Part shown: positions 44,789-47,750 of the stretch, piece after piece | Numbering within the stretch: position 1 is the first letter of the stretch | Layout of the letters: each line of letters begins with the position of its first letter | Assembly: GCA_965208325.1 (NCBI GenBank) | Contig: OZ242326.1 | Location: forward strand, 352,001 to 416,000 | Origin: Candidatus Poribacteria bacterium | GTDB lineage: Bacteria > Poribacteria > WGA-4E > PCPOR2b | Length of the DNA stretch: 64,000 bases | Direction of reading: 5' to 3' | Position numbers and translations under genes: made by a program | Notes under the pieces: model-generated | The model's input: the letters and a program-made list of their open reading frames with translations, nothing else | Database searches by the model: none | What the model was told of the DNA's origin: nothing

Positions 44789-45583
44789 ATGTTAATTTTC
44801 GCGCTGTTAATTGTAGTTGGAACGGGACTGCAGCGAATCAATCCCAACGCTTTGGGAGAAAGCGGATCAGGGTTACCCGACAATACACTCATCAACCTAC
44901 CGGAAGCGCGAAACGCGGCGTTTGCCGGCAAAGCTTGGGCAAACCAAGCGCAAGCCGCAGCAGCACCAAGCCTAACGCACGACTCTGACACTTGGGCGTT
45001 TGTTGTTAGCGGGCACTTACAAAGCAGTCAAAACCTGGGCGGCTATCTAGTCACGGTGCAAGATTTAACCACAGGCGATGTCATGACAGAAAGTGTGAGA
45101 GACGGCTACTTCGCCGCGGCTACAGCAAATCTCGCACGCCAAAGCGTGGTGAATGTTGGCGTCGCTTTAGAGGTCACCGTCACCGATACGACCGGCGAAA
45201 TTGCTTCGAAGCCGTTAATTTTCACGGTGACGCACAATGCGCTCCTAAACGCAGTACTTCCTTTAGTGCTTGATGGAGTAGGTGTACCGAAGCAGACGAT
45301 TTTATTGCAGAACTACCCAAACCCGTTCAACCCTGAGACATGGATACCGTATCATCTTTCCGAGGCAGGAGATGTGTCGACGACTATTTACGATACGACG
45401 GGCCAACACATTCGGATGCTATCGCTTGGCTTTCAGTCGGAGGGTTACTATCAAAGCCGTTCGCTCGCCGCCTATTGGGATGGGCGAAACGACCTCGGTG
45501 AACAAGTCTCGAGCGGGATTTACTCCTATCACTTGTCCGCCGGCGATTAAACTGCAACGCGGCGGATGGCGATTGTCAAATAG
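44789..45583 (+). pseudogene. degenerate T9SS-type protein lacking cargo modules, premature TAA at 45548-45550
   Basis: WAFVVSG domain plus LLQNYPNPFNPETWIPY; tail reads AGD*TATRRMAIVK. Confidence 0.7.
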
Positions 45584-45607: not shown

Positions 45608-46096
45608 TCAACGACCTAACTTGACTCGCGCCCACAGTGTTAGTCGTTTTAAATTTGGACGCACAGAAGACGTTTTGTCGACTGGGTGCCCCGCCTGTTC
45701 CCATGCGAAAAACCCACCCAACAGCACCGCAACATTCTCTGGATTAAAGCCAAATTTATCAATTAGCTGGCGTGCCGCACGGACACTGGTGGCTTCGGCC
45801 GGTCAGCTTCAGTAAAAAACGACAAACGGCTCATTTTTGAGCTCCTGATGCCTCGTGGAGATGTCACTAATCGGCATAGAGACGGCATTCTGAATATGCC
45901 CGTTGTCGTAGGCGCCTTTGATGCGGACATCTATAATCACGACATCATCACCTGCATCCAACCGGGCTTTGAGGTCAGCGACCGTAATTCGCTGCACATC
46001 TTCAGGAGGCGCTTGAGCGGTCGAATGTGATGCGAAAGACGTTTGAAGGAGAAGGACGGTCAACAGGAAGAAAATGCACCTATATGTTTTTTTCAT
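45608..46096 (-). CDS. exported rhodanese-like protein with two in-frame TGA codons (Y-U-S-U-P), probable selenoprotein of 162 aa
   Basis: IIDVR...YDNGHIQNA...VVFY*S*PAEATSVRAARQL...VLLGGFFAWEQAGHPV completes the rhodanese fold only with readthrough. Confidence 0.85.
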
Positions 46097-46184
46097 CGGT
46101 TTTTCTCCAAGTGTTGGGTTTTGACTTTTGTAATTTTAAGGTGTTTTTCACGCCGGTGTCAAGAGTTTTCTGACATTGGTCAAA

Positions 46185-47750
46185 TCATAGGTTTTCCATC
46201 TCACCCGTCATCAGCAGCCCAATTGCCGGCAGTTCATGTCGAAACCGTGTTGCGTCCGCCAGTCCGCCGTTGTACATCACAAAGATGCGGTCGCTGAGTG
46301 CTAGCACTTCATCTAACTCGGTGGAGATAAGCAATACGGCGCGGTGATTCCGCCGCTGCTCAAGAAGCCGCTGCTGCACATAGTCCGCCGCGCTAATGTC
46401 CAGACCGCGCGTTGGGTTGACTGCAAGCAGTAGTTCCGGTGTTTGTGAGAGTTCCCTAGCAATGAGCACCTTCTGCTGATTCCCGCCGGATAAGAATTTT
46501 ACGGGTGAGTTCCGATTAGTAGTCCGGACATCATATCCCCGGATGAGTTCATCGGCATCAGCATTGATGCGTTTTCGATCCAACAACGGGCGCCAACGTT
46601 TAAGAAATTTGGAACCGCCCATGAGGCTGGTTCGATAGTTATCAAGTTGCTGAATGTTAAGAATTAGGTTTTCCGCAACTGTGAAATCGAGAATGAGTCC
46701 GGCGTTTTGGCGATCATCGGGGATATATCCATATTTCAATCGGCGTATTTGATTCGACAATAAGTTGGTGACGAATTTCCCGTTGAATCGAATTTCACCG
46801 TTGCGCGGCATTCGCAGTCCCATAATGGTTTCTGCAAGCTCAATCTGGCCGTTGCCGTCAACGCCGGCGATTCCGACGATTTCGCCTGTATTCACCTCAA
46901 GTGAGCAACTGTTTACAGCAATCTGGCCTCGACTTCCGACGACAGTTAGGTCCCGGATTTGGAGGTGTGCGGTGCCTGAGGCGTGCGGTTCGCGTTCAAT
47001 CTGCGGCGGGTCATACCCGACCATGTGTTTCGCCAGGTCTGGCGGTGATGCGTCTGCCGCATGTGTAGTCGCGACCCGCTTGCCGCGGCGCAAGACCGTA
47101 ATTCGATCGCTAATCTCCATGACCTCTTTGAGTTTGTGGCTGATGAAGATTATCGAGTTGCCTTCTGTCTTTAGGCGCCGCAGGATGGTGAAGAGTTCGT
47201 GGGTTTCTTGGGGGGACAGGACGGATGTCGGCTCGTCAAGCACTAAAATTCGCGGCTTGATGGAATCGTCCATCGTTGGATTGACCAGTGCCTTGAGAAT
47301 TTCAACGCGTTGCTGCATCCCCACCGACAATTGCCAAATTTTGGCACGCGGTTCGATCAACAATCCATAACGGCGGGAAAGTTCAAACACTAGCGCCTCA
47401 ACCGTTCGCCGCTTTAGGCGGAATTTGCCGCGTCTGAAATTATGCGCGATGTTTTCGGCAACGCTCAACGTGGGAATTAATGCAAAGTGTTGATGAACCA
47501 TGCCTATCCCGTGTGCAATTGCCGTGTTCGGCGAATCAATTAGAACTGGCTTGCCGTCAATCCAAATCTCGCCCTCATCGGGTTGGCACAAGCCGTAAAT
47601 CGTATTCATAAGGGTCGATTTACCGGCTCCATTCTCACCGAGTACCGTGTGGACTTCACCGCGCCGTAAAGTTAGATCCACACGGTCAACGGCGAGATTG
47701 TTTCCAAATGCCTTGGTGATGCCGCGAAGCTCTAGCGCGTAAGGTGTCAA
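46185..47750 (-). CDS. CUT2-type (nucleoside/sugar) ABC transporter ATP-binding protein
   Basis: [34 protein letters not shown]. Confidence 0.93.

Follow-up and report, generated by a model that had tools for sequence, protein, structure and literature searches.

Is a rhodanese gene that appears to stop at its own active site a broken gene, or a selenoprotein gene whose stop codons are read through? The question is raised by a locus in a 64,000-nucleotide (nt) stretch of a Candidatus Poribacteria genome (assembly GCA_965208325.1, contig OZ242326.1, positions 352,001 to 416,000), here called the window, in whose numbering positions are given. A minus-strand reading frame that starts with the ATG at 46096 yields 95 amino acids (45809..46096) under translation table 11 and ends ...FVVFY. 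Directly after VVFY the frame continues TGA AGC TGA CCG GCC GAA GCC ACC AGT GTC CGT GCG GCA CGC, giving Y-U-S-U-P-A-E when TGA is translated as selenocysteine (Sec, U), and it then remains open for 162 codons in all, until a third TGA (45610-45608) terminates it. An original prediction, made from the window alone, had placed two in-frame TGAs at 45809-45811 and 45803-45805, which is exactly where they lie, and had proposed that reading through them yields the missing half of a rhodanese; this is borne out by a Pfam PF00581 match that spans both TGAs. We conclude that the locus very probably encodes one 162-residue exported selenoprotein of the rhodanese family, in which both UGAs specify Sec and a single hairpin serves them. 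That the gene is real and intact is confirmed as an observation, and the reading in which Sec replaces both active-site Cys is supported by comparison between genomes.

The full-length product has the features of a complete rhodanese. The PF00581 match scores 59.6 bits against a gathering cut-off of 22.2 (E 4.3e-16) and covers profile positions 1-101 of 102. An AlphaFold2 model based on an alignment of 54 relatives has a mean predicted local distance difference test score (pLDDT) of 87.4, with values >90 across residues 31-140, and its top Foldseek matches are the single-domain rhodaneses 3nhv, 6mxv and 3gk5, and also 1yt8, at a probability of 1.00. According to this model, the 95-residue product would amount to half a rhodanese fold. 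The downstream half is conserved: mean pairwise identity among 41 distinct orthologues is 0.60 over the 58 residues after the motif, compared with 0.55 over the 60 before it, and rhodanese hallmarks such as G-G-x-x-x-W are retained in the homologue alignment. As judged from this conservation, the part after the TGAs is translated and under purifying selection.

The two codons are conserved as well. A six-frame search of 61 related Candidatus Poribacteria genomes returned 43 strong matches in 42 genomes, the source genome included. Codon 98 is TGA in all 43 orthologous loci, and codon 96 is TGA in 36, TGT in six and TGC in one, and never a Trp or Arg codon; 36 loci thus carry two in-frame TGAs and seven carry one. 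All seven Cys-96 loci fall in a single family (f4). Among four more distant loci, the motif is Y-U-S-U in three and Y-C-S-U in one (G063); a fifth, G067, is truncated at the edge of its contig and is left out of that count. For homologues that use Cys, 26 high-identity single-domain proteins were chosen from the 9474 matches (E <= 0.001) of a profile-free exhaustive search, and their consensus is Y-C-S-C-P-A-E-x-T-S, in agreement with the YCxCPxE that the original prediction gave for relatives. In an alignment of 54 homologues, with U shown as C, Cys occupies at least 90% of both columns and position 96 is invariant. Scored for TGA or TGY, as had been suggested, homologues therefore have Sec or Cys at both positions.

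Could the TGAs be errors of assembly, or two nonsense mutations in a pseudogene? Gene callers do cut the protein short: each of the 11 database homologues found (67-99% identical) terminates at the same ..V[FL]Y, so that callers evidently stop at this codon everywhere; ten of the 11 entries are 95-96 residues long and the eleventh is 115 residues with the same ..VLY end. However, both TGAs occur in 36 of the 43 loci, in several families, and they recur in contigs from four sponge-metagenome studies. These independent sequences, in which TGC or TGT would have counted against the original prediction, have 6-17 other differences, none of them at either TGA, and contain no TGC or TGT at these codons; the nearest difference, at 45797, is synonymous (GCC -> GCU). 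The occurrence of the same TGAs across orthologues and independent contigs excludes assembly error and recent nonsense mutation and, together with purifying selection on the downstream part, refutes the pseudogene reading, which we regard as scarcely credible.

A second way to explain TGA within a gene is a genome-wide change of code (code 4 or 25), with Trp or Gly at these positions. Four public predictions (P0035, P0040, P0126 and P0144) do have Trp where Sec would stand (YWGW, YWSW, YCTW). In these entries a gene caller working with another code has translated TGA as Trp. In the genome studied here, TGA terminates 590 of the 1736 open reading frames (ORFs) of at least 300 amino acids, and it also ends the rhodanese gene; among 49 tRNAs, the sole one with anticodon tca is tRNA-Sec. 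TGA is thus an ordinary stop that has not been reassigned, and homologues have Cys at both columns rather than Trp or Gly. The stop usage and tRNA set refute reassignment, to which we give next to no credence.

The machinery for Sec insertion, whose presence had been proposed as a check, is encoded in full. The genome has selA, selB and the gene for tRNA-Sec (anticodon tca) adjoining one another (G000:C1:2041505-2044755, minus), and selD (G000:C1:4481278-4482201, minus) itself has one in-frame TGA (..VKCAGU..), followed after 11 nt by a hairpin read from the sequence as GGAUCC-GGG-GGAUCU. Just upstream of selD, within about 300 nt, there are three tandem repeats of ~84 nt, in whose translation a 28-residue string appears three times. 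Across the phylum, 164 of 176 genomes have SelA, among them 46 of the 47 with the rhodanese orthologue; the carrier in which no SelA match was found, G068, is 79% complete. Given this machinery and the codon comparison, UGA-96 and UGA-98 would both be decoded as Sec by SelA, SelB, tRNA-Sec and SelD.

What, then, directs the insertion? The original prediction had pointed to a stem-loop at 45772-45786, with a loop beginning in G, 28 and 22 nt past the UGAs, as a selenocysteine insertion sequence (SECIS). The stem-loop is conserved: its five base pairs form in 43 of 43 loci, and the same helix is predicted by RNAalifold. The consensus is 5'-GUGYC-NGKKC-GRCAC-3', in which the second loop base is always G, and this first loop G sits 28 nt downstream of UGA-96 and 22 nt downstream of UGA-98. 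Compensatory changes occur at two pairs. Pair 4 is C-G in 28 loci, U-G in 13 and U-A in two, and pair 2 is U-A in all 43, with C-G in the distant orthologues G068 and G063. The 45 nt after the first TGA stand out from the remainder of the gene by far higher nucleotide conservation. At residues 104, 105, 107 and 108 (alignment codons 70, 71, 73 and 74; Ser AGU, Ala/Val GYC, Ala GCG, Ala/Thr RCA), the entropy of the third codon position is 0 bits, compared with ~1.5-2.0 bits for fourfold sites elsewhere whose amino acids are just as conserved. Short foreign contigs in three sponge metagenomes match the window only at 45772-45820, a block of 49 nt that comprises the active site and the hairpin and stops at the 3' foot of the latter, beyond which the contigs run into unlike sequence; they therefore represent orthologues from co-resident relatives.

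The original prediction had also proposed that one SECIS may serve two codons, and a single conserved hairpin does lie downstream of both UGAs, as this would predict. Being the only strongly conserved structure after the UGAs, this short, G+C-rich intragenic hairpin with its G-containing loop is most likely where SelB is recruited, first for one codon and then for the other. The same prediction had included a lower stem (AGCTG/CAGCT). As a conserved feature it was rejected: the AGCUG/CAGCU pairing can form in 2 of 43 loci only (L006 and L007).

An alternative division of labor would use two recoding signals, with the main hairpin acting on UGA-98 only and UGA-96 read through a small 3-bp hairpin (45791-45800) or through its conserved AGCUGA context. 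The outer pair of the small hairpin does covary (G-C 18, C-G 5, G-U 2, U-G 2, A-U 1, U-A 1, unpaired 4), most of the seven CxU loci, where one Sec suffices, cannot form it intact, and between the UGAs 41 of 42 distinct sequences have AGC, a codon at which the entropy of the third position is 0.16 bits. However, the correlation with CxU is confounded because those loci are one clade with a changed amino acid at this place (Ala to Asn), no known SelB-binding element is as short as three base pairs, and a hairpin that begins 8 nt past UGA-96 would, by ribosome geometry, probably sit inside the ribosome while that codon occupies the A site. We consider a second signal unlikely, and prefer the single hairpin.

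If both codons are decoded as Sec, which residue would be the catalytic one? An ungapped alignment to domain 2 of 1yt8 places residue 98 on the catalytic Cys of its C-A-G-R-T-R-S loop; the resulting loop, C/U98-P-A-E-A-T-S104, has the canonical six residues. The model has a strand up to Y95 and a helix from residue 102 onward. We favor residue 98 because it is Sec in every member and stands at the canonical distance from the loop-closing Ser, so that it is probably the canonical catalytic position. Located six residues before that Ser, it would act as the nucleophile and bear a sulfane sulfur or a selenium atom, and residue 96, Sec or Cys by lineage, would be its resolving partner, possibly forming an Se-Se or Se-S bond with residue 98. 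The two would make up a U-x-U site in the cell envelope that is redox-active. Basic residues are absent from the loop P-A-E-A-T-S, and this speaks against an anionic substrate of the thiosulfate type.

Placement of this site in the envelope is suggested by the ends of the protein. A signal peptide had been part of the original prediction, and a signal-like segment, basic then hydrophobic and ending in a small-x-small motif, begins the protein in 43 of 43 orthologues. The AlphaFold2 model has an N-terminal helix at residues 4-22. The segment is thus a putative Sec-type signal peptide that would export the rhodanese.

The C-terminus carries a tag, VRPNLKRLTLWARVKLGR. A tail of the form V-x-P-K-x-K-R-x-T-x-W-[GA]-R-[IV]-K plus a few residues terminates 42 of the 43 orthologues; in the exception, L047, the motif is present and is followed by 22 more residues. 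When the six-frame translation of the source genome was searched with a relaxed pattern, V-x-P-x-x-K-x-x-x-T-W-[GA]-x-[ILVM]-K, 42 matches were found, 41 of them within 14 residues of a stop. The tag occurs on 40 other ORFs of at least 80 amino acids, with 1-11 residues following (examples are at 47570 +, 1053257 +, 3197930 + and 4668705 - of the genome), and the remaining match is the rhodanese. The rhodanese tail matches the relaxed pattern, with L where T stands in most copies, and the protein is therefore a further cargo of the tag. In the model the tail forms an amphipathic helix (residues 149-160) of low confidence (pLDDT ~57-69). A role in sorting or in membrane anchoring, perhaps as an anchoring helix, is a guess. 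Two distant orthologues differ at their ends: that of G068 (L053) has a ~200-residue C-terminal extension in place of the tag, and that of G063 (L056), with Y-C-S-U, has a lipobox-like N-terminus (..SFGC) and no tag.

Several observations weigh against the reading set out above. The 50 nt of the window that contain the hairpin fold no better than shuffled sequences (z = -0.93; 34 of 200 shuffles were as good), and their minimum-energy fold uses the other, non-conserved pairing (AGCUG/CAGCU), so the case for the hairpin is drawn from comparison between genomes. Within the 43 loci, four of its five pairs are invariant, and the covariation amounts to two pairs in related sequences. An Rfam scan of 45700-45880 on both strands, at E up to 10, found no family, and its one hit was a chance snoRNA at E = 6.2. 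Gapped alignments to 6mxv and 3tp9, with a two-residue gap, place residue 96 rather than residue 98 on the catalytic Cys, so that either residue may hold the canonical position. The best NCBIfam match, NF041203 ('rhodanese_LYCAU', rhodanese-related (seleno)protein), is reached at 81.8 bits, below its curated cut-off of 115. No RNA run that holds the gene was present among the 24 runs listed, and there is no conserved operon partner, no neighbor being conserved across the clade. What is said above of the substrate, of redox cycling and of the function of the tail is inference.

A further possibility is that only one UGA or neither is Sec, with readthrough by a near-cognate tRNA for Trp, Cys or Arg, or with the 95-residue fragment as the product. 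The selenium reading is drawn from sequence comparison, and the insertion of two Sec residues two codons apart by one hairpin would be kinetically demanding. Against this stand the half rhodanese fold to which 95 residues would amount, the identity of 0.60 in the downstream half, a codon 96 that alternates between TGA and TGY only across 43 loci, and the presence of both Sec machinery and hairpin; we judge this possibility quite improbable, more so than a second recoding signal. The two-Sec, single-hairpin reading is preferred. A fuller picture would add that one 15-nt SECIS supports two SelB-dependent insertions (at 16 and 22 nt), that the enzyme is a diselenide/diselenol redox rhodanese delivered by its tag to the envelope of a sponge symbiont, and that the resolving position toggles between Sec and Cys from family to family. 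This we hold tentatively, as slightly likelier to fail in some part than to be right throughout.

How widely is the gene distributed? Matches at E <= 1e-20 occur in 47 of 176 Poribacteria genomes, and all 48 matches contain at least one in-frame TGA. In family f2, this query found the orthologue in none of the 112 genomes (0/112), 106 of which have SelA; use of Sec is thus widespread in the phylum, but the rhodanese selenoprotein is confined to some of its lineages. A single-protein search returned two close relatives, both from Candidatus Poribacteria, and one spurious weak match. Most of the sequence sets in which the stretch occurs carry the label of a sponge metagenome.

The rhodanese gene is solitary: upstream of it lies a gene for an ATP-binding cassette (ABC) transporter ATPase, and downstream a convergent one. 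The convergent ORF (window 44789-45550, +; 253 amino acids) has LLQNYPNPFNPETWIPYHL near its end, followed by a beta-rich tail, which we take to resemble a type-IX-secretion-like C-terminal domain. In 10 of 30 loci, all ten in one genus, the next gene encodes a class-I pyridine nucleotide-disulfide oxidoreductase (495 residues, GGDCLWTGCVPSK) and starts at the rhodanese stop, ~213 nt after the motif (L012, L013, L015, L016, L017, L020, L025, L026, L027 and L033). The association is weak because these loci are kin. Upstream of the rhodanese gene are a putative ribosome-binding site and a promoter-like site; the latter agrees with the consensus at 11 of 12 positions, and the region has three such sites compared with 0.6 expected in shuffled sequences. 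Feature coordinates are collected in Table 1.

Table 1. Features of the rhodanese locus, in window positions; Sec, selenocysteine; SECIS, selenocysteine insertion sequence.
Feature	Position	Strand	Basis or remark
Full coding sequence, predicted exported single-domain rhodanese, Sec at 96 + 98	45608..46096	-	162 codons + terminal TGA 45608-45610
Putative signal peptide, residues 1 to ~22-28 (MKKTYR, hydrophobic stretch, SFA/AQA)	46013..46096	-	Predicted from sequence
Rhodanese domain, residues 38-134	45695..45985	-	Pfam PF00581, model, Foldseek
UGA codon 96, predicted Sec at first Cys of Y-C-x-C	45809..45811	-	Codon comparison
UGA codon 98, predicted Sec at second Cys; probably canonical catalytic position	45803..45805	-	Codon comparison, alignment
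Small 3-bp hairpin GGC-CGAA-GCC between UGA-98 and main hairpin	45791..45800	-	Begins 8 nt after UGA-96
SECIS-type hairpin GUGUC-CGUGC-GGCAC	45772..45786	-	Stem begins 22 nt after UGA-96, 16 nt after UGA-98
C-terminal tag VRPNLKRLTLWARVKLGR, residues 145-162	45611..45664	-	Lineage-specific tail common to many exported proteins
Putative GGAG ribosome-binding site	46105..46108	-	8 nt 5' of ATG; read from sequence
Promoter-like site TTGACA-18 nt-TAAAAT	46133..46162	-	~37 nt upstream of ATG; consensus match only

Natural U-x-U genes offer a test of how strictly SelB and SECIS depend on spacing and of whether a hairpin can be reloaded within two codons, and the 36 conserved UxU examples come with seven C-x-U controls in sister lineages. 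The findings would also give the envelope of a sponge symbiont a site with two selenols, strongly nucleophilic, and link it to an undescribed C-terminal tag. If the single SECIS and delivery by the tag are true, this would be the first selenoprotein cargo of an uncharacterized sorting or anchoring signal.

How do the hairpin and the protein compare with known systems? In the Escherichia coli fdhF type, the SECIS is an intragenic hairpin that follows closely on the UGA and has a G in its apical loop. The hairpin described here is likewise intragenic, downstream of UGA and with a loop G, and the hairpin of selD in the same genome is comparable. Unlike the fdhF type, one hairpin follows two UGAs that are 6 nt apart (16 and 22 nt away), and there is no sequence similarity. 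A literature search for one SECIS that decodes two nearby UGAs in bacteria found only archaeal work.

As for the protein, a search of titles and abstracts on Poribacteria and selenocysteine returned nothing on it, and its type is not new. A 'rhodanese-related sulfurtransferase' selenoprotein with UxU was reported in 2007 from deltaproteobacterial symbionts of Olavius algarvensis (Zhang & Gladyshev, NAR 35:4952, PMC1976440). In that protein too, which belongs to the rhodanese family, a second Sec evolved beside the first to give U-x-U. The host phylum differs, being Poribacteria here, and the two are likened by motif; the passages on the UxU protein in that paper mention no C-terminal tag or export signal. 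Our finding opens no new category of system.

Five forms of rhodanese selenoprotein are distinguished in Table 1 of a 2026 review (PMC13188914), of which form 3 is NF041203 (CxU, one Sec) and form 5 is TsoB (NF045694; UxxxxU, two Sec); the CxU type has also been named 'COG0607 form 2' (PMC9312934). TsoB similarly combines a rhodanese domain with two Sec but differs in its score (32.3 bits against a cut-off of 805), in its Sec spacing and in being a 572-position rhodanese/DsbD fusion-like protein. NF041203 is the closer of these profiles in the sense that it is the best NCBIfam match for the Poribacteria protein and for eight relatives scored on it (five Poribacteria orthologues and three database homologues), and it shares the single-domain architecture and a Sec at the second position of L-Y-C-x-U. 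Its motif has one Sec (CxU), whereas the Poribacteria protein would have two, and the tag is added in the Poribacteria clade. The eight relatives score 51.3-93.8 bits, all under the cut-off, which explains the truncated public annotations; with entries cut at the UGA and scores too low for NF041203, the Poribacteria clade (47 of 176 genomes) is mis-annotated. Compared with the known UxU and CxU rhodaneses, what is new here is a Poribacteria-wide clade that lies under the NF041203 cut-off and carries a lineage-specific C-terminal tag.

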